From Prorocentrum cordatum (Eukaryota), in assembly GCA_963575745.1 (NCBI GenBank), contig CAUYUJ010000170.1:372001-436000 (forward strand): DNA of 64,000 nucleotides, written 5' to 3'. The translations under genes were made by a program, and so were the position numbers. Shown piece by piece: positions 5,591 to 62,902 of the stretch. Every line of letters begins with the position of its first letter. Position 1 is the first letter of the stretch. The notes beneath the pieces were generated by a model that saw only the letters and a list, made by a program, of their open reading frames with translations, was not told the DNA's origin and made no database searches.

Positions 5591-6385
5591 GGCCTACACA
5601 TCTGATGCGTGTCTCGCCTGAAACTCCTTGCTTGGGCCACGGGGGCTGGATGGAAGAGGAGGAAGAACGGAGGAGGAGGAACGGAGGAGGAACGGAGGAG
5701 GGGTGGGGAAGAACGGAGGAGGAAGACGAAGGAGACTGCTAGTGGGCATTCTGACACGGACGCTCACATCCAGACACTCATTGACAGAGACCCAGAGCCC
5801 AGTTATTAGTGGCATGAAATGCACATGGGGATTCCGGCGTCGAGTGCTGCTGTACCCAGAGCCTCCTGGCAACCACCCCGCCGCCTTCCCTGATGGCCTA
5901 GTATATGTTTCGTTTTTAGTAGCCGGCCCACCCCCTATCTCACGATTTGTTCAGCCATCCATTATTTCCCATACCCCTTCGAAAGGGTTGCGCACTCCTG
6001 ACGTCCACCGGACTCTGCCGGCCTTCCGCCGCCCGCTTCCGCCAGCGGAACCACACTCGTCTTGCTCCCGCCGCCTTCCGCCGAGGAAAAGGTGTCAACC
6101 GTCTCGATGCCTCGAGGGCGCAGCCCTCTCTGGAGCACCCCGTCTGGCCTTCCAAAGACGTAGGAACAGAAATACCTTTGGCAGAGAAGCCGACTTCTGA
6201 TCGACAAGCTGTCCCGAGAAGTGCATGGCTCTGGAGGGCCATTTGGGACATCTCTGGTCTTGCAATGCTTGATCTGGGTTCACATCGAGTTGCAATGATC
6301 TGCGTCGATCTCCGCGAGTCGATCAGTGGATACCCCTCCTCGTTGCCTTTCTCCTGCTCCCCCTCCTCATCCAACTCCCTCTCCG

Positions 6386-6890
<505 letters not shown>

Positions 6891-9003
6891 TTTGCATAAT
6901 CAGCACCCCTTTTCCAGGTGGCCTGGGCATGGCTCTCAGCAGCGGGCCACCCATAGGGATAGCCACTCGCCGTGTCGCCTGTGATGAGCAGACTCCCTCC
7001 TCGAACGAGCCCGAATTTGGAGCCACCTGGCTCCCTCCTGATGTTGGCTGCCCACTTCCGACGCACACGCTTGCTGTGCCAAAATCGACCTCTCCAGGCT
7101 GGTTCTGGTCGAACGGACAGGCTATGGCGCCGGAGGCTTATTTAAGAGGCCCAGGGACACACAAAGATTACACACAAGTCCTAGGATTCCCCTATTTTCT
7201 CATATCTTCTGGATGTTCGTCTTCCCCTTCACTTCCAATATTTCCCACTATTTTCCTCGGGATCGACGGTTAAGTGTGTCTGTGTGTGTGTTTTTCGCTC
7301 CTGACCTATCACGCATCCAGGAGGTGCCCGGCGGGGGGGGCGAAAGCTGCTGCACGCCACAGATCTCGACCCCCCCTGGGGGCCTCAGTCCTGGCCGAGG
7401 GGTGCTTAGGCCTAGCGAAACCGACCTCCTCCAACGAGCCGCGCTGACAGCCTCCGACTCTTCCCCCGACGCCTCCTCCTCCTCCTCCTCCTCCTCCTCC
7501 TCCTCCTCCTCCTCCTCCTCCTCCTCCTCCTCCTCCTCCTCCTCCTCCTCCTCCTCCTCCCCCCCTGTCGTCCGCGCCGACCTTGGGCTGTCCGCCTCTG
7601 CTCCTGCTGGGCCACCGCCGGCCTCCGCCGAGGGCGGCACCTCAGCGCCTCGGCCCCCGCGGAGGCGAGGCCATCCCAGGGAGCAGCTCACACGTCTGGC
7701 GTCTCGAGGAAACCAAAAAGAAGGTACTCCAGATTTCGTAATAAAAGGGAGGGGGTCTGGACCCTCCAAGACAAGCCATTTCAGACCTCCCCCGTGGGAG
7801 AACCCTCCAAAACATCGTCCCCAGATCCCCCAGGCCCTCCAAGATAGCCTGGAAGAGACCCCCCCCGAAATGAGACCCCCCTCCCTTCATTACGAAATCT
7901 CGTACTCCATCGTGTTCGGCATCTTGGGGCCCTCACTGGGCCTCGGGGCCGTCAACAAACGACCGGGGATGAGAAAGCGGTTCTGGGAACGTGGTCGCCC
8001 GTGCATCGAACAAATCGAAACGCCGGGTGTCAGGGTTGGCCCCATCGAAGGCGACGCCCTTGCAGGGAGCGAGCCACACCACCATGCTGGCTGCCCGCCG
8101 ATGGCCTTGGGCGTGTGGGGCGCCCGAACGCCCACGCAGGCGCCGCGGGCGCCGCGGGCGCCGCGGGCGCGCTTGGGGAGACGTAAGATTCGGGTTCGGG
8201 GGACGCAAGCTCCCGCTGCAAACACCCCACGAAAACTGGACCGTCAAAACCCAGGACAGGCTTGCCCCCTCAGATCTGACGCTGCAAAAGCATGCAACAT
8301 CTCAAGAACCATCACTGGAGCCGGGGCTCCCCCTCCTACCCCTCCTCCTCCTCCTCCTCCTCCTCCTCCTCCTCCTCCTCCTCCTCCTCATGCCCCTTTC
8401 TGAATCACCTTTCCGAGCCGCATCGATCTGTGAGGGCCCCGTGGGGCCCGACACCGTGCGAGCACACCCGGTGTGAAAGCATTGCCACGCCATGGCCCCA
8501 GTTGCCCCATCCACGCCCCGCACGCGCAGGGCATGGGTGACGGGGAGGCGCCAGGGTGCGGCGCAGGGCGTCGCTACCCGCAAACGTAACCCCACAAATG
8601 ATATGAAGCGCTGCGCAGCGCCATGGTGATGCTAACGCTGATGCTGCTGCTGACGGTGGTAGTGATGGTGATGCTGGGGTCAACCAGCGTCGGCACACCC
8701 GAGTTCCGGCGAGCTCGAGCCTTGCGTTCGGTCGGGCATGCCTCCCTACGGGCGGATTCTGGAGGAGAGGAGAGAGAGAGAGAGAGAGAGAGTCAGAAAA
8801 GATATTCGGAAAAATAGCAGGAAGTCATACGAGGGACGTGCCCGACGTAAGCCTTGCGATCCCTCGACGTGTGTGCGCGCCGTGGGCGCGTTGCGGGCGC
8901 GGCGCCGCGCGCCGCGGCCGCCCGGCGCAGCGCGCCGCGCGCGCCGCGGCCGCAGCGGGCGCCTGGCCTCATGCCGCTGCAGCCTGGCCCAGCCCCTCTC
9001 AGC

Positions 9004-10125: not shown

Positions 10126-12318
10126 GATTTGAGTGGATCAGCCCTCGTCCTCGTTGTCCTCGTCTTTGTCCTCATCGTGTTCCTCTTCCTTTTTCCGCCT
10201 CTTTGTCGTCGTTATCGTCGTTATCGTCGTCATCATGGTCGTCGTGGTCGTCGACGTGGTCGTCGTCGTCGTCGTCACCGTGGCTGCCCGCTTTGTTTTA
10301 CGACAGATGTCTATTCGCACCTTTCCCCATCAACTCTCATAGGCAGGGTTTTTGAATGGGCTGATGGGGATATTTTTTCGGTCGCGTCCGCAAGCGAAAG
10401 CGCAGGCGGACACAGAAGCTGTCCAGGGCACGGAAACAGACCTAATTAGCTACAGGGCGCGCAACGGGCCGGCCGGGCCAGCTCACAAGGCAGCTGCTGA
10501 GCTGCGGGGCGAGGGCGGACTGGCTGAGGGCACCCACGGAAGCTCAGGCATCGTGCAGCCCTGACCAAAATGCCAGGGAATTCGAAGTACGCCCTGTGGC
10601 GTGGACCACTCTGTGAGTGAGAACGCAAGCAAGCTGATGCCCACACCCCTCTCACGCCTGGTGGTTGCGAAGGCGAGGCTGATGTGGATACTTTTTTGGT
10701 CGACGGCTGCGCGACGACGGCCTGGCGGTAACAGGCAATGTCGGGGGCGGGCGGCACAAAGCTAATTGCACACAGAGCGTGCAGTTGCACATGCACTGAA
10801 CAAAATGCTCAGCATTCACCAGCAAACGCACCTGGGCGCCGCCAGTAAACCAAAGTGCACAAGCGGCCACGAGTGCGAGTGCAACAAAGTGAGTCGCCCT
10901 TGCGGCGCCAAGCTCCGAGCAGCCGACCCGGCAAGCAACGATGCACGAGCCCGGGTAACAGGCTGCTGGCGGTGGAAAACAAGGGGCCGAAGGCGCGGAA
11001 GGCTGAACCACTCAGCGCGCAGCCCTCGAACTCCACCGCAGAGTTGGGGGGGCCGGCGGCACCCTTCGCATTGAGTCCGGCGCCTGCGGGGAAGGCCCGG
11101 GGATGGTGCGACGATGCGTAAAACGCGGGCTGTACCAGGCAGCAACACTCAGCTGATGGGGATACTTTTTTTGATTCGCGGCCCGCAAGGAAAAGTCCAG
11201 AGGGCGGTGTGAACGAGGCTGGGGCACAGCGCACGGGAAAGCAGATAATGAACGCCGGACAAGTGCCGGCCGAAGAGGCAACCGCGAAGGCGCCAGCTGA
11301 AGCCCGGGCGCCACCACGCGACCACAAAAGCCGTTGAGCGCGTGCCAGCAGAAGGGGGTCAAAATTAATGCAGACAATTAGCGACGCTGGCACTGTGCCA
11401 GCAGAACAGGCAGCCGAGAAGGCACCAGCAGATAATTAACGACGCTGGACATGCGCCAGCAAAAGAGGCAACTGTGAAGAAACCAGCTGAAGCCCTGGCG
11501 CCACCACGCGGACCCCAAAAGCCGCTGGGCGCGTGCCAGCGAAAGTGGGGAGGGCGGAAAGGCCGGACACGCAGGTGGGGTCAGCCTGCCAGGCGGAACG
11601 TGCCAAAACCACTCACTTCCCACTTGGAACGTGGGCCAGTTGGCACGCCGCTGAGGGGGGTCGGGTCAATGCCTGAAGAAAGCCGACCACAGGAGAGCGC
11701 CCGCGATGGCCTCTGGCACCAAGGCGGCGCGCGGCCTGCGCACCCAGAAGGCCTACCTGTGGCAGTAGCCAACGTCTGGCACAAGCGTCAGAACGGTGCC
11801 TTGACCGACGTCCATGTCCGCCGATGCCGGCAAGCAGCCGACCGCACTGTCAACGCGCCCATGTGAAGGGGGTCAGAAGTCGCCGCCCCTACGGGCGACG
11901 AAGTGGAAGCCAGTGCACGTTGCCGACTCCAAAGGATGGGCACCCGGAATGTCTGAGGCCAGCGTCCGATGTGTCCGAGCCCGCATACGGCGCGGGCAAA
12001 ATGAATGAGCGTAGCAAGCCGAGAGCGGGCGAAGCGCCTTGAGCGAGCCCTCTCAGAGCACCACAGGCCGCCACTGCGGCCAAACCGACGACGGGATTAT
12101 TTCAGCCGGCCGAACGGGCTAAAGGCCCACGAGAACGCAGGGACTATCGCGGTGGTAGGGGGGCACCTCAACCCCAGGAGGTAACAACAGTCCGCCCCAG
12201 TGGCCCACTGCATCGGTGAAACATGTCCTGTCGCTGTCTGCCGACAGGCGTGGCCGCCTGGTGGGAACCCAGTGTCCTGGGGCCACCGCGCCTCATCCTC
12301 CATTGGAAATCGCTTCCC

Positions 12319-12470
12319 TGTGGCGACGAGAAAGGGGGGGGTGGCAGCCGATAGCCGCAGTCATGAGTGTAGAAGTAATGGCGACGAGAAAGGGGGTCAG
12401 CAGCCGATAGCCGCAGAATGACAGACAGCACGTGGCGACGAGGGAAGGGGAGCGCAGCCGAAAGCCGCGG
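12319..12470 (+). repeat. Three tandem ~55-60-bp repeats at the 3' end of the helicase-bearing relic
   Basis: tggcgacgag(a/g)...gcagccga(t/a)agccgc at ~12319, ~12379 and ~12432. Confidence 0.75.
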
Positions 12471-12599
12471 AACTGGAGAGCGTGGCGAAGGGTCGGGGCG
12501 AGCGGCCTGAGCCGCAGGACATCGTCTGGGGTGGGAACGCCCAAGAGGGAGCCCCACGGCACACGTGCGCGGCAAGTCTACCGCGAAGGGGGTCACGCG

Positions 12600-15500
12600 T
12601 TGCCCCGGCAGCCCAACGCCGTACGCCTTGGCGGCTTTTGTAGGACCGGCCTCGCCCTAGTCGGGTGGCCCCTGCCAGGCCCGCTGCCGGTCTACCAGCG
12701 CGCGAGCTCCCATCCTGGCTGTCGCTTGTCGGCGTATTGCTCGTCACTTTTCGGGGCGGTCCTTTTCTCCCTGTTCCCCCACGAAGCTCCCCTCCAGGAG
12801 CTATCCTGGTGGCCCCACCTTTCCCATCGCGGCCTTGGGCGCCATCGGGCTCCAGAGCTGGATGCTCCCGACCAGGTGGTCCCCCTGTCGGTGTACGCTG
12901 TCGGGGCGGCTGCGCCGTCTCTGGTCCTGCTCCATGGGTGCTGCTGCGCAGCCCCGCTGCATGTGCTGGAGGGTTGGGTCTGCTCATGGTGGCTTGCCCT
13001 TTCGTGTGGGACAGGGGGGGGTGGGCGCTGTCCTGCTGTCGGACCAGGGGCACGGGTTGCCCTTGCTGTCTTGTCCCTTGGATGCGCTGGCCTTTGCGCC
13101 GCGATGTAGTAGGCTACGATATTTCTCAGCGACCTTCTGCCATTCCACACGGAGATGGTGGTGTCTCACCAACTTAAAGGCGTCGTAGCCCGCGGCCCCC
13201 CACGCCCGCAGGAATTCTTCGCGCCGCCCCCTTGTGTTCCTCCTGGGATCCGAGTGGACGTCGACCCACGGTAGACCCTGCAGGCTGCCTGCCCTGCGAA
13301 CCCATCCTATCCAGGCCCCGTTGAATGCGCCTCCGAGTGTCTTCTGTAATCTGGTGACTTTCTCTTGGGCTGGCTCGTCCCTCTGGATGTCGGCCTCGTC
13401 GATGGACCTCATGTACATGGGGGGCCCTCCTAGGGGGTCGTCTTGATGTGGAGGTGGGAGTGGATCAGCCTGTGGTCGCGGCCGTCTCACTGGGCTGCTG
13501 TCCTGCCGGGGGCTGGGCGCCGGGCGGGTCTCGTGCGCTGGGGCTGCGAGTTCCTGGATGGTCTCCTGACTGCAGTCTGGCCTGCTCCCTTTCCCTCCTA
13601 GTTTCCTTTCGTCAGCCCTTTTGTCACGGATTTCTTCCATGTCCTCTCGGAAGCGGGCCGTCGCGCAAGGCGCCCAAGTGGCAGCTTCCTCCTTGTCGGG
13701 GGGGACTGTCCACAGCACTGTCCGCTTGTGGGGGCCGTCTCTGCCGCTGGGGCCGCTGATTTCGGCTTCCTCGTCCTGCTGCGGGGGGCTGTCGACCATG
13801 GAGACCGCCCTTTCTGGATTGTCCCCATCCCAGTCTACCCCGAACGGATAAGAAGCGGTGCAGCGTTTCCAACGGCTGCCGCCAAGGGTCTCGCCCTCTT
13901 TGGCAGTCGAGCGCGGCCGAGAAGGTGCGCCAGTCCTCCTGGAACTTTCCATAGCTCCCAACCAGCTGCGCAATGGCGTTGGCTGCTGCAGCTCTATGGC
14001 CGTCCCAAGGGATGCGAGGGGGGTGCCCATTCTTGGGGATCTGGCCACCGTAGATGGAGTGGAGGAAGCGCAGCAGCTGGCTGCGCGGCCAGTCCGATAC
14101 CTCGCTGTCTTCACCCACTTTGTCTCCAACCCTTTCCCCACCGAGAGTTGACCAACGAATGTATACCTCGTGGTTCCATTCCAGCAGGAACTTCACAAGT
14201 TTGCGCACTGGCCCGTACGACTGCTCTCCTTCCAGGCGGAGGGTCGCGTGCGCGGGCAGCTGGGGAGCGCTGGGGGGGGCGAGCGCAGGCAGAGCGCACC
14301 CGAGCGTAGCATTGCCATTGAGGACCCTCACCGACCGCGCCCCGAGCTCGGGGGGGCTGCTCGCGGAGGAGCCCAGCTTTGCGGATGTGGTGGCAGGAGA
14401 CAGGTGTGCACACATGTCGTAAATGCCCCCCTCCTCAGCACCTTCGCTAGCCACCATGAGGACAGGGCTGGGGAGTAGATCACGTTGGAGTATGCGTCCA
14501 GCACCTCGTTGAGAGCGCTGGGTGCGACGTCCCAAATGTGCACCAAGCATCAACTGCAGGCCCAGCTGGCGTTCCATTGCCTTTTGGTCCACAGCGTTAG
14601 CATTGTTTCCCGTGCTGGGAGGCCTGTGCGGTCGCAGCACTCTGCGCCTTCTTCGGGGCGCCAAATGAAGCACCCCAGGGCGGGTGTGCCTGCCGACCAT
14701 TCGAGCCCTGGGGTGCGCGTGGGGCAAAAGTCACACGCTGCCGAGTAGCATTTGCTACGGTGCGCCTCCGCACCGAACCTGCCATCTGAAAGCCTTTGCG
14801 GTGGCAGAGCGGCGCGTGGACAGGTGGGGCGGTAGTGGCGCGCCGTACGAAGTAGGAGCTCCTTGAGGGAGACCTCGGCTGCAGCGTCCTTTGGCTTCTG
14901 CAACCCCAGTGGGAGCCCGTCCAGGGGTGGGAGGGTTCTTGCCCTCTTCTGCTCCCGGTTGTCCAGTAGCCTGCGCTTGTGCCCCTGCAGTAACCATTGC
15001 ATGGACTTCTTGCTGAAGCGCTCCTCGGGGTCCGGCTCAGGGAGAGAAATGCCCTTCTTTTCCAATGATGCTACCCAACAGCGTTCGCAGGGCCCTCTGC
15101 AGTTTTCCCCCTTCGTGCGCGCCTGCAGGCGGTTCTGAGCGAGTAGCTCGCGGGCGCAGTCGCCCTCCCAGGTGCCTGCGGAGACTTGGAGCCCCCCACT
15201 GTGGCATCCATCGCAGCGGTACGCGGCCTCCATCTGAGGCCTGCTGAAGCGCCCGTCGAAGCGCCCGTCGCGCACAACGGGGGGAATCAGCGCAGCACCT
15301 GGGGCGGGTGAGGCGGGGATGTCTTCGTCGAGGCGGCGGTTGGAGATGGCAGCCCCCCCGCCAATGCACTGCAGGTCCCCCATGATACGCGGGCGCCCCA
15401 GCCCGACCCCCGACCCTGCCAGCGCGGTGTGAAGAAGGCAGGTGGAACACTCTCCGTGGCGCAGCCGGTTCACGTCGGCTGGCTGCACAATGTCTTCTAG

Positions 15501-16472
15501 TACGCGTAGGGGAGCTTCCGACGTGAAGTCGCGCGCCTCCATCCCAGCCCAAGTCTTTGGACAGCCGTGCTCGTCAGCAATCTTGTGGTGGTGGGCGAAG
15601 GTTGCCAAGGTACCCTTGTGACGGATGACCTTGGCGAGCTTAGCGTGGAGGTTCTCGAGGTCCGCCAGCTGGCAACCCCACGTCGTGGCGAACTGCGCGC
15701 GAAGCTCTCTGTGCGCTTCCTGCCACGGGAGGCATAGGCCCATCATTGCCTCGAAGATGTCGCCAAAGACCTCGGGGTTTGGGAAAGGCCATAGCGTGGC
15801 CCGGGGCTCACGTAACTGCAGCATCATGACCACCAGAAGCTCTTTAAGTGCGTGTGGGGAGAGCGGCTGTCCGCCGGCACTGATAAGCGCGTCTGTGAGC
15901 TCTGCATCAATCCCCTCGTGCTTGAACAAGGCGCTCAGGTTCTCCATACCTGGGTGAAACCTGTGCCGACGGCACTTGCAGGTCGTAAAGCTCCACGCCG
16001 CTGGAAACTGATGGAGCGTGCCCTGGGGGGTGCAGTGACTTTTCTTCTTGGGGCCCCTGTGACTTTTCTTCTTGGGGGCCCTGTTTGAGCCCACCATGTG
16101 AGGTAGGGGTGGGAGCGACTCGTACGCGACCCCAAACTGCTTGTCGTTCCATGGCGTGCCAAGCCCGAGGAACCAGACGATGGCCGCCCACGTGAGGTTG
16201 TATACCCGGTTGCTCGCGTCGATCCCGACCTCCGGGTCAAAGCACTAGCCCAAATGGCTCCATGCCTTCCTGTCAAGACTGCCTGGCTGCCTGGGCGTGG
16301 CCCCCATTTGCCCTTGGTGGGGGTGTAGTCCAGAGATGGTGTACAGCAGGATGCCCATGAGTGGGTCGTCGACTAGCGCCTGGATGCTGTCCGAGAGGGC
16401 GGCCCCGAGCTTTTCCCACGAGAACTGCTCATCCAATGGTGCTGCGATGCGGTATGTGGATGAGCTCTCCAA
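12600..16472 (-). pseudogene. Decayed C-terminal continuation of the helicase reading frame: possible RNase III-like region, Cys-rich motifs, W/G-rich tail
   Basis: ORF 16245-16472 and ORF 14550-16097 are in the same frame, split by one TAG. Motifs SNRVYNLTWAAIVWFLGLG and VFGDIFEAMMG resemble RNase III SN..LA...LGL and D.FEA..G. Cys pairs CSTC, CDGC, CERC, CDFC follow. Frameshifted protein-like segments continue to ~12.6 kb. Confidence 0.45.
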
Positions 16473-16510
16473 TTTGGCCTTGGCCTTCCTGATGGCGTCG
16501 CCCAGGCCTT

Positions 16511-17927
16511 TTACACTGACGTCCCCGTCATGTGTGGGAGCAGCTGGGATCCACGACTCCAGGTTCTTGATGGGGTGAATCCCTCGTCACAGCGTAGGGA
16601 GGTCCGGTTGCCCAGGCTGTCCTCTTGGAAGCGGATCCATAGCCCAGCCAACCTCCCATATTCCGAGAGCTCCCTGAGGTGCGATCTCGTGGCCGTGCTG
16701 AACATTCCATCCCCGATTATGACAACGTGTGACCTGGCACGCGTGATAGCGACATTGACCCTGTTGGGATTGTCCATGAAACCCCAGTCGTGGAAGTAGT
16801 TGGACCGCGTAGTCAGGTAGATCACGATGTCAGCCGCACCGCCCTGGCTGGAGTCGATGGTGGAGATGCTGCGCCTGCCGTTGGCCACGTGTTTCCCAGC
16901 TACCTGGCATATCCCTGGGAATTGTAGCCCGATCCCATTGGACTGGGAGCTCCATTGCTCAAAGTCCTGTTCGTGTCCTCGCTGGTCCCTGGGGTGGGGA
17001 GGGGGGTCGCCTGGCCCTTTGAACTCGCCTTTGCCATCACCTTTATCCCTGCTCCTAGCCTGCCCGAGGGAGCCGATGATGATGCGACCCGACTGGGGCC
17101 AGCCCCTCTCGAGCACCGCGCACTGAAGCTGGTAACCTACCACGACCAGGACTATGGTCCCTTCTTCCATGGCAGGCATGAGGGCCCTCACCACGTCCAC
17201 CGTTTTTGCGGCCTCTGGGATGTTCGCGTAGCCAGAATGAAGATTGGAGGTGACCACGACTGAGGGGTCTGTCGACCAGGAGAAACCGGTGCCTTTCTAC
17301 AGAGGGTTGCGGTGGGGGTTGAAGGTCCCGTAGTAACGTCTCCATGTCGTCTGTGGTGGTATTGGCCGACTCTGCTAGCGACCGGAGCCTCCCTTCGTCC
17401 CAGGGTCGTACCTGCTGCCACGGTATTCCTTCCACGATAGGCTTCTGCGCTAGAGCATTGGTGAGCCCAGTCCGAATAGCCTTGTTGTAGAAGGCCACGC
17501 TCGGCCACGAGAGGAGGAGAGGATGCATACGGTAGCAAAGGTTCAGCTGTACCACAGCTGGGCTGTCCCCGCCTAGTGCATTGTACAGCTTGTCAAATAT
17601 GGAGAGGCAAAGTCCCCTGTCAGCCGCCTTCCTGGAGAGAACCGTGGGGGGTAGCTGCCTGGGGTCGCCAACCAGTAGTAGGTGCCCACCTGACCGTATG
17701 ACATTGACGAGGGACATTGCCGCCATGAGTTCGTGGGCATGTCCCGCCTCGTCGATGATGAACAAAGCTGTTGGTACTAGCTTGAGCGACTCAGCCGCCT
17801 CGTGGGTAGCGATAACCAGCTTGGCGTCGCTTAGTAGCTCAGAGCGGAAGGACTGGAGCTCCTTGGATGGTCCGATCTGTTTGGGCGGGCGATCATGGGT
17901 CCTCTGAAAGTGTCCCATTGGGGTCAA
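16511..17927 (-). pseudogene. Upf1/DNA2-like superfamily 1 helicase (AAA_11/AAA_12-type), N-terminally truncated and frameshifted
   Basis: Motifs in canonical order: LVIAT, IIDEAG, LLLVGDPRQLPPTV, SIFDKL, QLNLCYRMHP..LSWPSVAFY, YAN..EA, ISTIDSSQG, GFMDNPNRVNVAITRAR..VVIIGD. No Walker A motif; frameshift near 17260. Confidence 0.9.
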
Positions 17928-18793
17928 GGACGCAATCTCCGGGGATACTTTTTTTTACAGCCGCAGGCGAAAGCGCCGACGGCGGGCGGTCACGGTCGGG
18001 CTGCGGCCGCGACCAGATTCCCGGGCGCGCGCGGGGGCCGCGGATCAGGCGGCGGGGGGGGGCAGCGACCCAGGGCGTCTGAGAAGCCAGGCGAGCGTGC
18101 AATCCAGGGAGTCTGCAAGGAACGCCCAGGAAACGTGCAAGTGGCAAACCCAGGGCTGTCTACCACCGAGAAATTAAAACGCCGCCAAAATGGCGCGTGG
18201 ACGCTCCCGTCGTGATCGTAACAAAACGACAGTTGGTAGGGAACGAAATCCAAGCAGGAAAGCCAATCCAGGGAGTCTGACGGGTATGAGCAGACAAAGC
18301 TGGAGACGCGGTCCTGCAGGAAGGTACTCTGACAGCGCCAGCGAACCGTCGCAGCATCAGAGGCACATCCGTGGAAGGAGCTGCAGCCCCGCGGGCAGGT
18401 AAAGATCTTCCACTGGGGTGCGCCTGAGCCCAGTGGCCCAACGGTCAGGACTGGACCCAGCAGGAGCGGCGGCCACTCGGTGGGGACAAGTCGCTCAGAG
18501 CGTGCCGTTCAATGTGGCTCGCGCCAAAGCCCACACGCCCAATCGTGGAGGCGCGCGAAGGACGAGCGCCGTATACCCAAAGAGCAATCTCCGGGGATAT
18601 GCGAAGCGTGAAGAATTAGTACTATGTGCCTCTGTTGGAGACGCACGCGACCGGCCAAAACATATAGCACGACACGTTGTAGTATATTGACTCCCGAGCG
18701 CTAGGGCCAGAAAGCGCCCGCCCCTCAGCTGACAGTGTCAGACTTGCGAGCGTGCGCATCGCCCTCGCGAGGCCAACGCACAGAATTTCAGCC

Positions 18794-18831: not shown

Positions 18832-19357
18832 CGGGTGGCGCCCCGTCGCCCGCGGCAGCGCCGCCGTGGCGCAAAGGGGCGTCACGGGCTGAGGGGGAGG
18901 GGCGAGGGGGCAGAACGTGACGCCCCCCGGCGCCCCCCCCCCGCCGTGTGGCTCCGGCACCACAGACTGTGGTACCGGACGCACTGCGGCAGTGCCGTGG
19001 ATGCACTGGGGGGGCGGGGGGGCGCTGGTTGCGTTATGGAGAGGGGGAGGGAGGGGGAGGAGCGTTGCTATGAGGGTGGCGAGCGTCACGGTAATGGGGG
19101 GGCGTTACGTTAGGGGGTGGGGCCTAACGCGCGTTATGGCCAGGGGGGCGGAACACTTACTCAGACGGTAGGACCTCAAGAATATGTTTAACTTGCCTGG
19201 GGATGTCCTCCTGCCCCCTCCCTTCTCCCACCTACTCCTGCCTCCTCCTTCTCCTCCCGCCTGCTCCTCCTCCTCCTGCCTCCTCTTCCTCTTGCCTCCT
19301 CCATCACCTCCTTCTCCTCCTCCTCCTCCTCCTTCTCCTCCTCCTCCTCCTCCTCCT

Positions 19358-19388
<31 letters not shown>

Positions 19389-20629
19389 TCCTCCTCCTCC
19401 TCCTCCACCACCACCTCCTCTCCTCCTCCTCCCCCTCCCTCCTCCCCCTCCCCCTCCCCCTCCCCTCCCCCTCCCCCTCCCCCTCCCCCTCCCCCCCCCC
19501 TCCCCCTCCTCCTCCTCCTCCCCTCCTCCTCCTTCTCCTCCTCCTCCTCCGCCTCCTCCTCCTGCCTCCTCCTCCTCCTCCTCCCCTCGCCCTCATCCTC
19601 CTCTCCCTCACACTCCTCCGCCTCCTCCTCCTCATCCTCCTCGTCCTCCTCCTCGTCTCCATCTTCCTCCCCCCTCCCTCCTCCTTCTTCTCCTCCTCCT
19701 CCTCCTTCTCCTCCTGCCTCCTCCTGGCGCCGCCTGGGGACTCTTGCGGCCTCCTGGAGCCTTCTCGGCCTCCCGGGACCTGGTGGGGCCTCCTAGGGCA
19801 TTCCTCCTCCTCCTCCTACACCACCTCCTCGTCCTCCTCCTCCTCCTCCTCATCGTCATGTTTCCCCTCTGCCTCTCCTCCTCCTCCTCCTCCTCCTCCT
19901 CCTCCTCCTCCTCCTCCTCCTCCTCCTCCTCCTCCTCCTCCTCCTCCTCCTCCTCCTCCCGTGAGGTGCGGGAGGCCGATGACCCGCCTCGGATTCGAAC
20001 ATGAAGTGCGGGCCCTATAGAGAGGGGGCTCCCGCCGGAGACTTCCTCGCACTTCACTCACAGACGAGGCTCCCGCCTCATATTTCCTCCATATTCAGGC
20101 CTCGGGAGCCGAAAAATGACGACGGTTACAGGAGGCCGATGACCCGCCTCGAATTCGAACATGAAGTGCGGGCCCTATAGGGAGAGGGGGCTCCCGCCTG
20201 AGACTTCCTCGCAATCCACTCGCAGAAGAGGCTCCCGCCATATGCTTCCTCCGTATTCAGGCTTCCGGAGTCCAAAAGTGACGACGGTTACAGGAGGCCG
20301 ATGACCCGCCTCGAATTCGAACACGAAGTGCGGGCCCCATAGGGAGGGGGCTCCCGCCGGAGACTTCCTCGCAATTCACTCACAGACGAGCCTCCCGCCT
20401 GAGACTTCCTCCGATGATGAGGACGATGGTGATGGGTGGTGGTGATGATGGTGATGGTGACGATGGTGATGGTGACGATGGTGGCGGGTGATGGTGACGA
20501 TGGTGATTGGTGATAGTGATGGTGTTCACTCACAGACGAGGCTCCCGCCCGAGACCTCCTCAAGCTGAGTATGCGGTGTGTGAGTGAGTGTGTGCGATAA
20601 TGACGACGGTGACGGTGGTGATGTGATAA

Positions 20630-21995: not shown

Positions 21996-22095
21996 NNNNN
22001 NNNNNNNNNNNNNNNNNNNNNNNNNNNNNNNNNNNNNNNNNNNNNNNNNNNNNNNNNNNNNNNNNNNNNNNNNNNNNNNNNNNNNNNNNNNNNNN
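21996..22095. other. Assembly gap (100 N)
   Basis: Run of N. May hide further exons and makes contiguity across it uncertain. Confidence 1.
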
Positions 22096-26763: not shown

Positions 26764-27442
26764 CTGCGGGGGTCGACATTCCGGAATAGTCATGATGTTG
26801 GGTGTCTAGGCCGCCGCCTCCTTCCGCCTTGCCATCCTGCCCTCTTCCGTTTCCCCCTGTTCCTCCTCCTCCTCCTCCTCCTCCTCCTCCTCCTCCTCCT
26901 CCTCCTCCTCCTTCTCCTCCTCCTCAGCCTCCTCCTCCTCCTCCTCTTCCTGCTCCTGCTCCTCCTGCTTCTGTCGTTTCTTCCTCCCCTCCTGCTTCTC
27001 CCTTCCTCCTCCCCCCCTTCCACCTTTTCCACCTTTTTCCTCCTCCTCTTTTCCTCCTCCTCCTCCTCCTCCTCCTCCTCCTCCTCTTCCGTCTCCTCCT
27101 CCTCCGTCCTCCTCCTCCTCCTCCTCCTCCTCCTCCTCCTGCCTCCTCCTCCTCCTCCTTCCGCCTCCTCCTCCTCCCCTCCTCCTCCTCCTCCTCCTCC
27201 CCCCTCCTCCTCCTCTCCTCCTCCTCCTCCTCCTCCTCCCTCCTCCTCCTCCCCCTCCTCCTCCTCCTCCTCCTCCTCTCTCCTCCTCCTCCTCCTCCTC
27301 CTCCTCCTCCTCCTCCTCCTCCTCCTCCCCTCCTCCTCTCCTCCTCCTCCTCCTCCTCCTCCTCCTCCTCCTCCTCCTCCTCCTCCTCCTCCTCCTCCTC
27401 CTCCTCTTCCTCCTCCCCCCCATCCTCCTCATCCTCCTCCTC

Positions 27443-28797
27443 CCCGCATTTGCTGCAGACTGTTGGCCGTGCTGAGAGGTACGCGATCAGGGAGGGGCTC
27501 GACGCTGTCCCTGACCACCAGTGCTTCGTCACTGACCTGCTGGCGCTCGCCCAGGAAGGAGAGCGTTTGTGCCCGGAGCTCGAGCAGGGTCGTGCCAAGC
27601 ATGCCAGAGCGTGGCGGGACATCTTCGTGGCCAACCGCAGACGCACCCTGCGGGACCCTCCCAAGTTCCGATGGACGCCTGCGCACAGGTCCTCGGTGGA
27701 GCTTGTGGGCACAGAGCCGCAGGAGTTGCGTGACTGGCTAGGCAACGGCCGGGCAGACTACTTCGCGCGCTGCGGTGCGGCCTCTCACGCACTGGTTGGG
27801 TCGGTTGCCGAGGCGGTAACTGCTGCGCTGAAACAGCACCGCAAGGTCCTGCAGTTCATTTCGTGGGCGGCACTGCAGGTGGCGGCTCGCGAACCATGGG
27901 GATGCGACGCGGAGGCCCCCAGGCCACCTTGCGTGCAGGCCAGGCCCATCGTGGTGGCACGAAGCACGGACCATGCCCCTGCTTACTGTGCCAGCCTCGG
28001 GCGGTACCGATGTACCAAATGCGGAGTCACGGCCACAACAGGCCCCTCCCTCGATTCGCTGCAAGCTGGCTCTCATCGTGCATGTCGGCCTTCGCGCGTT
28101 GCCAAAGCTTCCAACGCCGAGTACTTCCGCACCTTCGGCGCGGGTTGGGCCCTCTGCAGCGACCAAAGGGCTGACATGGCCCTGGGCGCGGCCTTGGCGC
28201 TCGAAGGGAGCTCGCAGTCCTCGACTCCCGCGGCCTTGGTGCCACCTGCCCTGGCCGAGGAGGTAGGGGGCGCCTTCGCCGCGCTTGGGCACGACGCGTT
28301 CAGGGGCAACGATGTCCACTGTCGCAGACGCTGCGGGTCCCACTGTGCTGCGAGCGATGTCCGCACAGGGCGGAAGCTCGGCTTGAGGTGCGAAGGGTTC
28401 TCGCCCAACGAGTCCACGCGCCGCAACCAGCAAGGTGCGATCAGGCGCGTCGAGAAGGGACTGGCGCCTCGTGCCCGACGTACCCCAGCGGCGCAGCTCC
28501 CGCAGGGTTGCCCCTCTCGCAGCCACGCGGCGCGATGATCGACCATGTCGTGATTCGCTGCCGTTCCGTGGTCGGCTGGTGGCACGGCGTCTTCTTCGGC
28601 GGCGACGCCTCTTTCGTCGACGGCAAGTTGGCCTGCGCCGGCGCGCCCCTGACTCTCTTCCTCTGCGATTGGGACTTCCTCCACACTTTCTTCAACCTTG
28701 CCCTCTCCGCCATCGCGGCGCGGGGGCGCCTCGGCGTAGTCCGTCGGGCGCGCGCCAGCGCGGCCGGCGGGAGACGCTCGAGAGGCGCTGCGCTCCT
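27443..28797 (+). mobile_element. 5'-truncated non-LTR retrotransposon 3' fragment: RNase H1 domain + Cys/His zinc-finger motifs, embedded in (CCT)n
   Basis: RNase H motifs QTVGRAERYAI, FVTD, AKHARAW, RWTPAH, WLGNGRADYFARCGA. Then H..YC....YRCTKCG and GH......VHCRRRCG. (CCT)n on both sides (26860-27442 and 28798-28860). Confidence 0.85.
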
Positions 28798-29565
28798 CTT
28801 TCTCCTCCTCCTCCTCCTCCTCCTCCTCCTCCTCCTCCTCCTCCTCCTCCTCCTCCTCGCCCTCCTCCGTTTTTGTCTCCCCCCCACTTCCCATATTTTC
28901 CCATGTTTTCTGGGGAATCGACGATTAATTGTGTCTGTGTGTTTTTCCCTCCTGAATAGTGTAGGGTTGGCGCCCCTCCGACCACTGGTCACGTCACGCG
29001 TCGCGCCGGCGCCGTTCCCAGACGGCGCCAGCGCGAGTCGTGACGTGGACGGCCCCCTCCCCCCCTTCCTCCTCTTCCTCTCCTGCTCCGCCGCCCCCCC
29101 TCCTCCTCCTCCCCCTCCCCCTCCTCCTCCTCCTCCTCCTCCTCCTCCTCCTCCTCCTCCTCCCTCCTCCTCCTCCTCCTCCTCCTCCTCCTCCTCCTCC
29201 TCCTCCTGATGCTCCGCCCTCCCCCTCCTCCTCGCTCCCCCTCCCCTCCTCCTCCTCCTCCTCCTCCTCCTCCTCCTCCTCCTCCTCCTCCTCCTCCTCC
29301 TCCTCCTCCTCCTCCTCCTCCTCCTCCTCCTCCTCCTCCTCCTCCTCCTCCTCCTCTGGTCACGCCCACTATCGCCAAGGGGGGCGAACTGTCTCAGAGA
29401 TAGCTATACCGCCACTTCGTGGACCTCTCACAGGGTGCGCTCTGACCAGAGCTTCGAGGCGAGGCCGGCGGCGGCGACGGGAGCCTCCCAGGAGGCCCAA
29501 CGACCCCCAGCAGAGCAGCCGAGTAGCAGCAAAGGTGAAGAGGCGGGCCGAGGAGCATTTGGCGG

Positions 29566-33550: not shown

Positions 33551-33883
33551 GCCACTGGTTCTCATGGCCAACGCAGCAAAAAACAAAGTTCTGGACCGGC
33601 TCATGATTGCCAAGGCGCAACGATTACGTTGACTCGCGGCGTTGAAGACCCAGGAATGGCGTTTTGGTACGGTTCAGAATCGCCAAGACCTCATAATCAA
33701 GTTAACTCGTGGCGCTGGAAGTCCTGAGAGTGGTGTTTTGGCACGCTTCGCGATTTCTGCACGGTTGTTCCCTAACGGGGCACTTCCCCCCAGTGGAGAT
33801 GAACCATTGTAGGGGCCTTTGAAAAGAAACCTTGCAGGGAGGGTGTATTCCAGCATCGTTGATCACTCTTGGGTATACACTGG

Positions 33884-34266
33884 TCCTCCTTCTCCTCCTC
33901 CTCCTTCTCCTCCTCCTCCTCCTACTCCTCCCTCCTCCTCCTCCTCCTCCTCCTCCTCCTCCTCCTCCTCCTCCTCCTCCTCCTCCTCTCCTCCTCCCTC
34001 CTCCTCCCTCCTCCTCCCTCCTCCTCCCTCCTCCTCCTCCTCCTCCTCCTCCTCCTCCTCCTCCTCCTTCTCCTCCTCCTCCTCTTCATTCTCCCCCCTC
34101 GTCCTCCTTCTCCTGCCTCCCTGCTCCTTCTCCTCCCCCTTCTCCTCCTCATCATCATCCTTCCTCCTCCCCTCCTCCTCCTCCTCCTCCTCCTCCTCCT
34201 CCTCCTCTCCTCCTCCTTTTCCTCCTCATCATCATCACCATCATCACCATCATCCTTATCATATTC

Positions 34267-34315
<49 letters not shown>

Positions 34316-34656
34316 CCACTGTCATCATCATCACCATCATCATCATCAGCATCATCGTCATCATCATCGTCATCAGCATCATCATCATCATTATCATCAG
34401 CAGCATCACCAAAAGCATCATCATCCCTCCACCATCTCCTCCAACTCCTCCTCCCCCTCCTCCTCCTCCTCCTCGTCGTCCTCCTCCTCGTCCTCCTTCT
34501 CCTCGTCCTCCTCCCTCCTCCTCCTCCTCCTCCTCCTCCTCCTCCTCCTCCTCCTCCTCCTCCTCCTCCTCCTCCCTCCGCCTCCCCTCTTCCTTTCCTC
34601 TCCTCCTCCTCCTCCTCCTCCTCCTGCTCCTCCTCCTCCTCCTCCTCCTCCTCCTC

Positions 34657-34687
<31 letters not shown>

Positions 34688-35420
34688 TCCTCATCTTCCT
34701 CCTCCTTCTCCTCATCCTCTCCTCTTCCCTCCTCCCTCATCCCTCCTCCTCCCTCCTCCCTCCTCCCCCCCTCTTCCTCCTTCTTCCTTCCTCCCTCCTC
34801 CCGCCTACCTCCTCCTCTCTCCTCCCTCCTCTGACCTCTCCCCTTCTCCATCATCCCTCCTCTTTCTCATTCTCCTCCTCCTCCACTTCCTCCTCTTACT
34901 ATTACCATGATTATTAGTAGTATTAGTGTTGCTGTAATGATTCGTGTTAGTATCAGTATGGTTTTGATTAATAGTAGTATTAGTAATAACATTAGAATTA
35001 GTATTGGTAGTTAGTAGTATCCTCCTCCTCCTCCTCCCCCTCCTCCTCCTCCTCCTCCTCCTCCTCCTCCTCCTCCTCCTTCTCCTCCTCCTCCTCCTCC
35101 TCCCTCCTTCTCTCATGCTCCTCCTCCTCCTCCTCCTCCTCCTCCTCCTCTTCTTGGTTATGCTGCCCCTCCTCCTTCATTTCCTGCTCCATCTCCTCCT
35201 CCTCCCCTCCCATGTCCTGCTCACCTCTTCCTCCATCTCCTCCTCCTCCTCCATCTCCTCCTCCGTGTCCTCTCCCCTCCTCCTCCTCCTCCCTCCTCCT
35301 CCTCCTCCTCCTCCTCCTCTTCTCCTCCTCCTCCTCCTCCTCCTGATCGCCCTCCTCCTCCTCCTCCTCCTCCTCCTCCTCCTCCTTCTCGTCCTCCTCC
35401 TCCTCCGCCGCCTCCTCCTC
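33884..35420 (+). repeat. Compound (CCT)/(CAT)/(TAG) low-complexity tract
   Basis: Direct inspection. Confidence 0.95.
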
Positions 35421-35519
35421 ATCTTCCCGGTCTCCTGGCTTCGCTGTTCACTCTCGCCCCGCCTTCGGGCCTGGCGCTTCTCGCCTGACACCTCCTCACC
35501 AGTCAAGCCCTTCGGCTGA

Positions 35520-35870
35520 GAGTTTGCAACAGTTTCACGGATGGCGGGCGGGCCGTTTTCAAAACGTGACTCTCGCCTTCGAGCCGCGCACGCACGTCGT
35601 GGAAAGGTTCCAAGCGTTTCAGGGGTGGAGGGCGGGTCGTTTTCGAGATGTGGCTCTCTCGCCCCAGCGCCGCGCACAGTCGTCCCAAGAGTTTGCCAGA
35701 GCTTCACGGGTGGAGGCCGGGTGGTTTCGAACTGTGGCTCTCATCTCAGAGGCGTGCACGTTCGTCCTGACAGTTCGCAAAGAGCTTCACGGATGGAGGG
35801 CGGCACATGCTCAAGATGTGGCTCTCGCCTGCGCGCCGCGCAAACTCGTCCTACGAATGTACAAGCGGTT
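35520..35870 (+). repeat. Second block of the ~83-bp satellite
   Basis: Same unit as 32400-33550, about 4 copies. Confidence 0.85.
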
Positions 35871-36299
35871 CAAGGATTAGTACGGCTGACGTCCCAGCAT
35901 GTTTCTGGCACGATGTGAAAATTGGCAGGGCGCAGCCGATGCGTTGATTCGGGGTGCTGGGGTCCCAAGGATGGCTTCTGGCACGATCCAGGATCGTCCG
36001 GACGCAACTGCGACTTTGACTCGGGGCGCTGAGGAGGAGGAAGACGACGAGGAGGAGGGGGACGAGAAGGAGGAAGCGGAGGAGAAGAAGGCTGATGATG
36101 ATGATGATGAGGAGGAGGAGGAGGAGTAGGAGGAGGACGCAACAGTGAATTATGTTCTGGCACGGTTTAAAAATTTCAGACGTGTACCTTCCAACGGGGT
36201 CCTTCCCTCAGTGACACTGAATCTTCGTGGGGATCTCTGACGAAGGAACGTCGAGGTCGGGCATATTACAAAGTCGTGAATGGGTCTGGGGTTTACACT

Positions 36300-37425
36300 G
36301 GTCCTCTTCCCTCCACCCTCCTCCTCCTCCTCCTCCTCCTCCTCCTCCTCCTCCTATCACTCCCTCCCTCCCTCCCTCCCTCCCTACCTCCATCCCTCCC
36401 TCCCTCCCCCTCACCCCCTCCCGCACCCATCCACACTCCCTCCACTCCTCCTCGTCCTCGTTCTCCGCCTCTTCCTCCTACTCCTCCAACTCCTCTCCTA
36501 CTCCTCCTCCTACTCCCTCCTCCTCTCCTTCTCCCCTCCTCCCTCCTCCTTCCTCTCTCCTCTCCTCCTCCTCCTCCTCCTCCTCTCCTCCCTCCTCCTC
36601 CTCCTCCGCCTCCTCCTCCTCCACCGTCTCCTCCTCCCCCCTCCTCCTCCTCCTCCTCCTCCATCATCATCCTCTCTCTACTCCGCCTTCCGCCTCCTCC
36701 TCCTCATCCTCCTCCTCCTCCTCTCCCCCTCCTCCCTCCTCCTCCTCCTCTCTCTCCTTCCTCCTCCGCTCTCCGCCTCCTCCTCCTTCCTACTCTCCTC
36801 CTCATCCTCCTCCTCCTGCATCTCCTCTAAACCCTCGTCTCCTCCTCCTCCTCCTCCTACTCCTCCGTTTCCGCATCTCCTCTTTCTCCTCCTCCTCCTC
36901 CTCCTCCTCCTCCTCCTCCTCCTCCTCTATTCCTCCTCCTCCTTCTCCTCCTCGTCCCTCCTTTCTCATCCCGCTGTGGTCCCGCTTGACGCGCCATAAG
37001 GGTATGTGACCGCTCTCCTCCTCATCCTCCTCATCCTCCTCCTCCTCCTCCTCTCCTCATCTTCCTCCTCCTCCTCACATCCCCTCTCCTCCTCGTCTCT
37101 CCCTCATCCTCTCTCCTCCTCCCTCCCCCCCCCTCCTCCTCCTCCTCCTCCTCCCCCTCCTCCTCCTCCCCCTCTCCTCTCATCCTCTCCCTCTCTCCCT
37201 CTGTCCCTCCCCTCCTCCTCTCCTCCTCCATCCTCTCCCTCCTCCTCCTCCTCCTCCTCCTCTCCGTCTTCATCCTCCTCCTCCCCCTCCGTCTCCTCGC
37301 ATTTTCCTTCCCCCCTTTTTTTTCCTCCTCCTCCTCCTCCTCCTCCTCCTCATCCCCCTCAGCCTCCTCCTCCTCATCTTCTTCATCAGAATCATTATCA
37401 TGAGTATCAACATCATCATCACCAC

Positions 37426-37466
<41 letters not shown>

Positions 37467-39669: not shown

Positions 39670-39706
<37 letters not shown>

Positions 39707-40050
39707 GTCATCATCATCACCATCACCATTACCATCCCCAGGATGATGATCATCATCAGCAGCAGCAGCGCCAGAATCAGCGTCAACATCATCAGCATCA
39801 TGATCACCGTCATCATCATCAGCAGCATCAGCATCAGCATCAGCATCAGCATCAGCATCAGCATCATCATCAGCATCATCAGCATCATCAGCAACATCAT
39901 TATCAGCACCATCAGCATCAGCATCATCAGTATTATCATCCTCATCCTCATCAGCATCAGCATCAGGATCAGCATCATCATCATGATTCATTATCAGCAG
40001 CATCATCATCAGCATCATCCATCTTCCTCCTCCTCCTCCTCCATCATCCT
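36300..40050 (+). repeat. (CCT)n followed by ~2.6 kb of degenerate (CAT/CAG)n with higher-order repeats
   Basis: Marker catccccaggatgat recurs at ~37551, ~38990, ~39363 and ~39733. Confidence 0.95.
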
Positions 40051-40496
40051 CCTCCCTCCTTTCCGCCGGGGGGCCTGGCGTCCAACGAACCGTCGGCGCC
40101 GACGGCCCAGCCCGCCGTCGCTCCTGCCAGGCGTTTGTCAACCCTGAGATGCGGGGGCTGCGGTTCTGTCCCAGACGTGCGAAATTTTGATTTTCCCATA
40201 TGTGGAACCCCGGACGGGACCGGTTCCAGACTCCCTGGGACCCGTTTTGCACCCTGAGTCGTTTTTTGACCGGCCTGGGACCCGGCGAAGGCCCCCAAAG
40301 GCCGAAAACGGCCAGAAACCTTCCGTCGTGACTTTTACGGCGCGAGCATGTCGGATGCCACACCTGGACCTCCAGAGGATCGAAAGCACCGAGTCTGAGG
40401 CTATTTTTCTATATATGTTCGGCCTGCGCAGGCCAGGCTCGGACCCTGGGGCTGTCAGAAAACCTCCTTGGGACGAGGAGCCACTGTCTCAAGTAT

Positions 40497-42815: not shown

Positions 42816-42966
42816 TCATACGCGTTAAGTCGGCGGCCCCGCCCCGTTGCCAGGGTGCACAGCAAAGTAAACCTGATGATGAGGCCAGCCACGTATGAGT
42901 ATATGTTCGCCCGCACAATTGCCTCAATGCCAACAGCCGCGAGGATTCGACCGTGCCCCATGCTGT

Positions 42967-47160: not shown

Positions 47161-47166
47161 TACTTG

Positions 47167-48349: not shown

Positions 48350-48459
48350 GCGCGGGCCGCGCGCGCCGAGGGCAAAGTGGCTGCACGCGTTGCTGGATCT
48401 GGCCGCGGATCAGCGGTGTCCCTTTTGCCTGGAGGCTGAACAGCCCCCCAGGTGGACAT

Positions 48460-48481
48460 CTTGAGCCAAAATGGCTACGGA
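48460..48481 (-). other. Complete 22-nt dinoflagellate spliced leader at the LINE 5' end
   Basis: Plus strand CTTGAGCCAAAATGGCTACGGA is the reverse complement of TCCGTAGCCATTTTGGCTCAAG (DinoSL, DCCGTAGCCATTTTGGCTCAAG). Followed by ATG, not by the GT of an SL-RNA intron. Confidence 0.97.
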
Positions 48482-61178: not shown

Positions 61179-61179
61179 A

Positions 61180-62902
<1,723 letters not shown>

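Follow-up and report, generated by a model that had tools for sequence, protein, structure and literature searches.

A probable 5'-truncated and decayed copy from a multi-copy dinoflagellate gene family for a giant protein with an Upf1-type helicase and an RNase III-like domain

The DNA stretch under study (64,000 nucleotides; hereafter the window) comprises positions 372,001 to 436,000 of contig CAUYUJ010000170.1 from Prorocentrum cordatum. Its minus strand carries a coding run that extends from 17945 down to 12692. This run begins with a helicase-coding part (17945-16658), which is followed by ~4 kb of related coding sequence distributed over three frames, named here A, B and C. The motif strings quoted in a preliminary description of this DNA were all located in translated minus-strand frames of the window, and their coordinates are now fixed. 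They do not lie in the single run of frames that had been described there. The coding sequence follows the path A>B>A>C>A>B. The GC content of third codon positions (GC3) marks frame A to ~17300, B to ~16560, A to ~14400, C to ~13850, then again A, and B below ~12840. Homology gives the same path, and this agreement speaks for real coding sequence. In our assessment the run at 12692-17945 is rather probably a dead copy, shortened at its 5' end, from a dinoflagellate gene family that has many copies and encodes a giant helicase and RNase III-like protein. This family is most likely specific to dinoflagellates.

Frame A spans 16586-12987 and contains four stop codons (TAG at 16245, TGA at 14550, 14328 and 14193). 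A frame of 564 amino acids (aa) exceeded the longest frame in 500 of 500 shuffles of 12000-18000, the largest of which was 446. Thus, the open frames exceed chance expectation. A 402-aa frame is not remarkable by itself in this DNA of 64% GC and was reached in 4 of the 500 shuffles. The 564-aa frame found no Pfam match, no match among PDB sequences and no protein relative of near its own length. This word-indexed search at near length remained empty because some relatives are much longer proteins and the others are short fragments. The ESM Atlas, queried with the same frame, returned an uninformative top score of 0.77, and Rfam matched no family over the whole 64-kb window.

The relatives of the window copy were collected with P0121, its X-read-through translation of 1199 aa, as phmmer query. 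An exhaustive search of 1.84 billion representatives yielded 141 proteins at E <= 0.001, and 80 of these reached <= 1e-10. These 141 family clusters differ from each other by more than 50%. The top match, P0122, is a complete open reading frame (ORF) of 2945 aa and occurs on contigs of 12.6 and 19.2 kb. It starts with a CxxC…H…H finger of the U1-like type and carries an Upf1-type helicase at residues 612-1114 with an intact GPPGTGKS. Five blocks of P0122 were found in the window by tblastn in strict order, namely residues 698-892, 926-1132, 1189-1840, 2137-2364 (in frame C) and 2815-2920. The features of the coding run, all on the minus strand, are as follows.

17370-17945, minus strand, frame A: helicase block 1, end of domain 1A, corresponding to P0122 residues 698-892 (AAA_11, tblastn)
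17742-17753, minus strand, frame A: DEAG
17646-17669, minus strand, frame A: GDPRQLPP
16658-17266, minus strand, frame B: helicase block 2, domain 2A, corresponding to P0122 residues 926-1132 (AAA_12 at 66.9 bits, tblastn)
16841-16861, minus strand, frame B: TIDSSQG
16733-16753, minus strand, frame B: VAITRAR
15582-16430, minus strand, frame A: candidate RNase III-like all-helical domain (alignment A1, AlphaFold, VIA-align, hhalign) with the conserved strings GLHPHQ, DRKAWSHLG, VGIDASN, LREPR, GDIFEAMMG and AHHH (alignment A1)
16200-16229, minus strand: VGIDASNRVY
15738-15764, minus strand: GDIFEAMMG
14472-15575, minus strand, frame A: Cys-rich region with five CxxC pairs (AlphaFold)
15438-15449, 15204-15215, 15078-15089, 14724-14735 and 14547-14558, minus strand: the CxxC pairs
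13816-14421, minus strand, frame C: conserved module containing …YGGQIPKNGHPPRIPWDGHRAAAANA…, corresponding to P0122 residues 2137-2364 and P0123 residues 756-1054 (tblastn, GC3)
13056-13376, minus strand, frame A: C-terminal module VTRLQK…FNGAWIGW…DPRRN…EEFL (string at 13358-13209), corresponding to P0122 residues 2815-2920
12692-13014, minus strand, frame B: Trp/Gly-rich tail with WERWGHQDSSWRGASWGN at 12773-12826 (P0195, P0279, GC3)

The intact P0122 runs parallel to the window in all five blocks, which means that the helicase and the frames behind it represent one protein and not two elements. The same order of modules was found in two further relatives that share one 12.4-kb contig, P0132 (end of the helicase and the next module) and P0123 (the remainder). 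The preliminary description had considered that the two parts might come from separate, unrelated elements; P0122 holds both, and the helicase and the downstream modules read as parts of a single chain. More than 80% of P0122 lies outside any known domain. Pfam at E <= 10 detected no PAZ, dsRBD, RNase III, reverse transcriptase, transposase, integrase, HUH Rep or Pif1 domain in it.

Partial gene models of the family are present on five contigs of Prorocentrum cordatum, and the other relatives are short metagenome fragments. In addition, a EukProt set labelled Pyramimonas sp. contains peptides of 60-150 aa that are 53-83% identical. Several of these peptides lie in frames that cannot be the coding one and represent ORFs from very short contigs. 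One of them, P0279, terminates in …VSYTHLRAHET, which we take to be a translated Nextera adapter. Apparently this source consists of ORFs on raw short contigs, so the Pyramimonas label may not hold.

The front of the coding run was assigned by profile, homology and motif searches. The Pfam family AAA_11 matched with 50.7 bits, covering only profile positions 183-257 of 257, and AAA_12 matched with 25.6 and 66.9 bits; the two families occupy two different frames. The AAA_11 match and the stronger AAA_12 match exceed the curated Pfam cut-off of 27 bits. With 120 helicases as tblastn queries, homology extended over ~17927-17316 (frame A) and 16903-16625 (frame B), with none upstream. DEAG, GDPRQLPP, TIDSSQG and VAITRAR presumably represent the helicase motifs II, III, V and VI. 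The Walker A pattern G....GK[ST] is absent from every minus-strand frame between 16500 and 21990. The N-terminal half of the helicase was found nowhere in the window, neither with 10 helicases at E <= 10 nor with P0122 at E <= 0.1. The PDB chains nearest to the helicase of P0122 are those of Upf1/NAM7 (E 3e-21). Judged from these matches, the segment is the C-terminal two thirds of an Upf1/NAM7-type superfamily 1 (SF1) helicase. An Upf1-like SF1 helicase devoid of Walker A had already been proposed for this DNA, and Pfam, tblastn and the motif scan agree with that proposal. Since motif I and the rest of domain 1A are missing, the window copy is a fragment and not a working helicase.

A single ORF of polyprotein size with an SF1 helicase would also suit an endogenous viral element, that is, the polyprotein remnant of an RNA virus or a giant virus. 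P0122 even shows a weak Viral_helicase1 match (E 0.014), which lies under the cut-off. However, its helicase is far nearer to Upf1/NAM7 than to viral helicases. Pfam revealed no RNA-dependent RNA polymerase, capsid, protease or methyltransferase domain in P0122. In 2.9 million IMG/VR contigs and in JGI metagenome contigs the search with alignment A2 gave pattern matches, none of which was upheld by tblastn. The model of the RNase III-like domain had no match at E <= 1 among the viral structures of BFVD (best Foldseek E 1.6), and both GC and GC3 of the locus are host-like. Consequently, a viral origin is regarded as highly improbable.

The damage in the window copy was mapped against its relatives. 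A counterpart of P0122 residues 1-697 was detected by tblastn nowhere in the window. The first change of frame (A>B) lies between 17370 and 17266, where GC3 switches at ~17300, and the second (B>A) within 16511-16586. Neither is an intron, because P0122 is collinear across both. The TAG at 16245-16247 replaces a Tyr of close and a Phe of distant relatives in alignment A1; it is the stop that the preliminary description had noticed behind a Leu-Gly pair. The TGA at 14550-14552 interrupts the last CxxC pair and stands for an Arg in close and a Glu or Asp in distant relatives. Near 14469 the frame changes from A to C; P0211 crosses this junction in one frame. Further changes were located near 13850 (C>A) and near 13014 (A>B), the latter crossed in one frame by P0195. 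The stops at 14328 and 14193 were not counted as defects because frame C is the coding one there. A deletion near 14470 was also considered on account of a deficit of ~300 aa relative to P0122 and P0123, and was rejected, as the close relatives P0211, P0221 and P0209 have the same short form. With its front missing, two nonsense codons at conserved residues and at least five changes of frame, the copy is, as far as its sequence can tell, dead. The earlier view of an intronless, decayed and 5'-truncated copy is thus supported by the frames, the stops and the collinearity with P0122.

Stops and shifts of this kind might also stem from errors of assembly or polishing, given that the region is rich in repeats. 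In that case the 3' part would belong to a functional gene, whose 5' exons might lie beyond the insertion described below and beyond a gap, a run of 100 N at 21996-22095. In a multi-copy family a consensus assembly could mix copies. Moreover, two changes of frame coincide with indel differences in contigs of the DNA run X1 (see below): one contig has two extra bases behind 14469 and another is one base short at 13014. On the other hand, 5.3 kb contain nine separate defects. Both nonsense codons differ by one base from a conserved codon (for Tyr and Arg, respectively), the N-terminal half of the helicase is missing from the entire window in the searches given above, and the 5' edge is marked by a 636-bp insertion with a 16-nt duplication. 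We therefore consider assembly errors a very unlikely explanation.

Several repetitive tracts surround the copy. A 162-nt tandem repeat (2.8 copies at 89%) at 19971-20412 lies directly upstream of the region studied here in minus-strand sense. Long trinucleotide and other low-complexity tracts (TCC/CTC, CAT, GAT and others) occupy 6300-7600, 19200-20000, 26800-29400, 33800-40200 and 60900-61900. They yield open frames of 200-750 codons in several frames simultaneously and are a pitfall for any ORF-based reading of this window.

The abundance of the family was followed in X1, the best DNA run among four runs, which contained 0.20 of the sampled words. On 12600-18200 we mapped 1074 short X1 contigs, of which 117 were identical to the window at >=99%, 351 at 95-99% and 606 at 90-95%. 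They fill all 30 bins, as many as 13 different contigs meet at one variant site, and their depth is still high at 12600, the lower limit of the mapped range. Since these pieces are contigs, they demonstrate many diverged copies and do not give a copy number. Obviously, the family is multi-copy; the preliminary description had asked for a check of this kind, which returned many variants of 90-99% identity. No second copy was found within the 64-kb window, and the copies therefore do not form a close tandem array.

Upstream of the copy, at its very 5' edge, the following element was identified.

17948-18583, minus strand: insertion of 636 bp with A8 at its end, lying between the two exact copies of a 16-nt direct repeat, TATCCCCGGAGATTGC, at 17932-17947 and 18584-18599

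On the 3' end of this insertion (17836-18022) the X1 depth reached 644 compared with ~100 nearby, that is, ~6-fold, and the contigs diverge at 17941. The insertion is probably a separate, short and abundant retroposon with target-site duplication that lies outside the helicase gene. As no helicase homology exists upstream of it, the 5' truncation is genuine, and only a few codons at most separate it from the duplicated site. The sudden N-terminal end reported earlier is thus confirmed, with the qualification that it coincides with this insertion. No similarity was detected between the insertion and the 3' flank of the copy. An 11-nt core of the dinoflagellate spliced leader (DinoSL) at 18184-18194 was considered as a relic of the helicase copy and was rejected, because it resides inside the foreign insertion. 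An A-run of 6-8 followed by GTATCC(C/A)C occurs on the minus strand three times, at 10678-10698, 11152-11176 and 17940-17955; two of these sites share 20 nt at 95%. The count is not significant (5 matches versus 3 expected), and the sites may reflect an insertion-site preference or a shared retroposon 3' end.

Exact DinoSL 21-mers were found on the minus strand at 48460-48480 and 53961-53981, with 0 expected from 100 shuffles. Two such sequences in the window identify the host as a dinoflagellate. The window also holds a candidate source of retroposition machinery, a long interspersed nuclear element (LINE).

42012-48474, minus strand: LINE-like run of long frames with Exo_endo_phos at 45081-47612 and RVT_1 at 44438-45460 (Pfam)

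The DinoSL at 48460-48480 directly adjoins the 5' end of this run, as would be the case if a spliced-leader-capped LINE transcript had been re-inserted. DNA-encoded DinoSL relics are an accepted mark of retroposed mRNAs in dinoflagellates, and host genes of these organisms also gain high copy number via retroposition, according to the abstracts of PMC6050394 and PMC5585692. The copies of the family most likely spread by RNA-mediated retroposition, for which LINE machinery such as that in the same window may have been used. The window copy resembles dinoflagellate retrogenes and processed pseudogenes in being intronless, truncated, decayed and multi-copy. The likeness extends to its surroundings, with DinoSL relics, a LINE encoding endonuclease and reverse transcriptase, and an A-tailed insertion with a 16-nt duplication. 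It differs from them in that neither a DinoSL relic nor a poly(A) tail nor a target duplication could be assigned to this copy.

Several of these properties would also fit an autonomous mobile element of an undescribed kind, of which the window holds a truncated dead copy. The giant ORF would then be a replication or transposition protein with nuclease-like and SF1B helicase parts, comparable to the Helitron RepHel. There are many variants of 90-99% identity in one genome, the 141 clusters are more than 50% divergent, and the intronless giant ORF occupies most of its 12-19 kb contigs. The copy in the window is truncated and decayed, and an unrecognised recombinase could hide in the more than 80% of the protein that has no known domain. 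It is this high copy number, the deep diversity and the unannotated bulk of the protein that keep the idea of a mobile element alive. Nevertheless, a repeat search over 6-26 kb detected only simple-sequence repeats, and the copy is bordered by neither terminal inverted repeats nor long terminal repeats. No support was obtained for the earlier suggestion of mobile-element cargo. The 64 kb hold no second copy, and at E <= 10 Pfam recognised no reverse transcriptase, transposase, integrase or HUH Rep. In contrast to RepHel, P0122 carries neither a Rep nor a Pif1 family at this threshold, and its helicase is Upf1-like, with the RNA helicases Upf1/NAM7 of cells as nearest match. The nuclease-like domain would have the fold of a double-stranded RNA (dsRNA) enzyme, and high copy number is also reached by dinoflagellate host genes through retroposition, according to the abstracts cited above. 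Taken together, a mobile element appears unlikely. A host-type gene family is preferred over it because only parts of RNA-handling enzymes are recognisable, because neither a replication or integration enzyme nor termini were found, and because the window shows active-looking retroposition machinery and its products.

In order to describe the domain behind the helicase, P0122 residues 1215-1500 were modelled with AlphaFold on a 51-row alignment. The model is all-helical, with a predicted local distance difference test (pLDDT) value of 76.4 and a predicted template modelling score (pTM) of 0.75. A wide fold search with VIA-align over 48161 chains placed RNase III, Mini-III, Dicer, Drosha, R3B2 or RTL4 titles in 20 of its first 32 rows at modest Z. 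These matches align 82-133 residues (model ~11-281), nearly the whole nuclease domain of the respective target. The rows name Giardia Dicer, Dicer-2, DCL1, human and mouse Dicer and Drosha, and the top row is 9dei chain B. The fold of the domain is probably RNase III-like, as far as this model can be relied upon. A homodimer prediction for the domain returned a score of 0.00 and no verdict, in a run without alignment in which the tool's own fold was uncertain. An insertion of ~90 residues that bears Cys and His splits the domain and is poorly predicted in the model. Within this insertion a 24-nt tandem duplication (2.1 copies, 16035-16084, Tandem Repeats Finder) gives rise to APKKKSHRGPKKKSH.

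The best-conserved part of the family is GD(I/V)xEA. In the second motif, GD(I/V)(I/L/F/V)EA…G, the residues G32, E36 and G40 did not vary over 10 members, and >=90% of these have D33 and A37. By hhalign, GLGDVLEAVLGIA was aligned to ILADTVEALIGGV (residues 111-123) of E. coli RNase III, and this alignment concerns the second motif only. The E. coli stretch presumably contains the catalytic D114 and E117. Aligned in this manner, the domain keeps the second catalytic motif D-x-x-E-A-x-x-G. At the place of the first signature the members read [FY]x[DS]xx[LV]G[ILM]D[AG][SG]N, in which the Asp is conserved; a Glu at -4 from this Asp occurs only in the subfamily of the window.

Several results weigh against the reading of the locus as a dead copy from a family for a helicase and RNase III-like protein. 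Pfam at E <= 10 gave no match at all for P0121 or for any of the 51 members of alignment A1. A PDB sequence-profile search at E <= 10 yielded no RNase III chain, and Foldseek on the domain model reached a best E of 1.3. The hhalign comparison covered 13 columns at a probability of 0.14% with E. coli RNase III and 15 columns at 2.1% with 29 proteobacterial RNase III domains. The canonical first signature (E-x-L-E-x-L-G-D) is not kept and its upstream Glu is absent; this had been noticed before, and the Asp alone is retained family-wide. Only two stretches of the protein were folded, and one RNase III-like domain was seen in them. RNase III needs two nuclease domains. The close fragments are any-frame ORFs of very short contigs and carry little information on expression or selection. 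Contigs from other copies cannot exclude assembly error as the source of the stops and shifts. Finally, the A-run after the ORF end, the flanking repeats and DinoSL were searched, and no poly(A), target duplication or DinoSL relic of the copy's own was found, which leaves the earlier notion of a retroposed copy without these marks. The missing DinoSL does not argue against retroposition, because a 5'-truncated copy could not keep such a relic.

The RNase III-like call of the preliminary description thus stands with regard to the fold-search rows and the family-wide GDxxEA. It does not stand with regard to profiles, where no match was obtained and the profile-profile alignment covered 15 columns only. 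On balance we lean, by a small margin of belief, towards a true RNase III ancestry of the domain. Its catalytic activity would be less probable than this ancestry.

Downstream of this domain, the Cys-rich region was modelled with the broken copy of the window as target (pLDDT 66, pTM 0.38). The model contains two confident small modules; fold searches gave no clear match, as one long helix dominates or E is above 1. The frame-C and C-terminal modules are conserved in P0122 and P0123 and belong to no named Pfam family. The C-terminal module is 71% identical to the fragment P0124. The Trp/Gly-rich string sits past the frame-A stop in frame B. In P0195 the frame-A text passes into the frame-B text without any shift, P0279 shows 78% identity along 37% of the frame-B tail frame, and GC3 is highest in frame B below 12840. 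The tail is therefore probably a real C-terminal extension of the subfamily to which the window copy belongs. GW or WG dipeptides occur three times in the window tail and five times in P0122 2700-2820, 120 residues at a different place. In P0279, the one close relative that covers the tail, its WG dipeptides are absent. The silencing parallel drawn earlier from the GW tail is weakened by this absence, and a reading of the tail as an Argonaute hook is speculation.

The family was compared with known RNA enzymes. Like Dicer, it would combine an RNA helicase and an RNase III-type fold in one chain. Unlike Dicer, whose helicase is of the RIG-I-like superfamily 2 (SF2), it uses an Upf1-like SF1 helicase. 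It also shows one RNase III-like domain instead of a tandem pair and no PAZ or dsRBD by Pfam, and lacks both the first catalytic signature and a sequence-profile match. With class 1 RNase III, Mini-III and Entamoeba RNase III the family shares D-x-x-E-A-x-x-G, which is in register with ILADTVEALIGGV of E. coli. It differs from these enzymes in that its domain is split by the ~90-residue Cys/His insertion, is devoid of E-x-x-E of the first motif and is fused behind a helicase. Hence in sequence profile, first signature motif, helicase class and domain count the family falls outside Dicer and RNase III. Kinetoplastid editosome endonucleases pair a U1-like zinc finger with an RNase III domain, and P0122 also has an N-terminal U1-like finger. 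SDE3, MOV10 and Armitage resemble the family in their Upf1-like SF1 core, and SDE3 carries GW motifs; the family has Trp/Gly-rich, apparently disordered C-terminal stretches. These proteins differ from it by having neither RNase III-like nor Cys-rich modules and by being about one third of its size.

To our knowledge, the helicase-bearing RNase III enzymes among the rows of the fold search (Dicers, DCL1) all use an SF2 helicase. We have not seen the pairing of an SF1 Upf1-type helicase with an RNase III-like fold in the named families or in the literature searched. The titles and abstract openings of that literature mention no protein in which an RNase III domain is joined to an Upf1-like helicase. 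PMC3853145 and PMC5245829 apparently treat Dicer and Argonaute in dinoflagellates.

Intact members of the family encode a single protein of ~2900 aa. It opens with a CxxC…H…H zinc finger, which is followed by an Upf1/NAM7-type SF1 helicase, a probably RNase III-like domain, CxxC zinc modules, two further conserved modules and a Trp/Gly-rich end. The RNase III-like domain retains the second catalytic motif and an Asp in place of the first. In the mechanism proposed here the helicase would load onto RNA and translocate 5' to 3', the zinc modules would grip the RNA, and the RNase III-like domain would cleave structured or double-stranded RNA. Overall, such an enzyme might operate like Dicer on a different class of helicase. 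Nuclease activity, an RNA substrate and a link to silencing are thus proposed for intact members. A farther-reaching proposal is that dinoflagellates possess a large, fast-diversifying family of giant enzymes in which an Upf1-type SF1 helicase drives an active, divergent RNase III. A dsRNA processor built from helicase and RNase III would then have been invented a second time and independently, possibly feeding Argonautes via its Trp/Gly-rich end and spread as retrocopies. We regard this proposal as possible, though doubtful.

The window copy itself is only a pseudogene, and its value is that of a pointer to the family. With 141 clusters and more than 80% of the protein without a named domain, this family represents a sizeable unannotated sequence space of dinoflagellates. 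Gene control in dinoflagellates is thought to be largely post-transcriptional, and their RNA-processing machinery is poorly known. If the assignment is true, the combination of an RNase III-type fold with an Upf1-type SF1 helicase would be a new build of an RNA-cutting motor, and the family would be relevant to the post-transcriptional biology of dinoflagellates.

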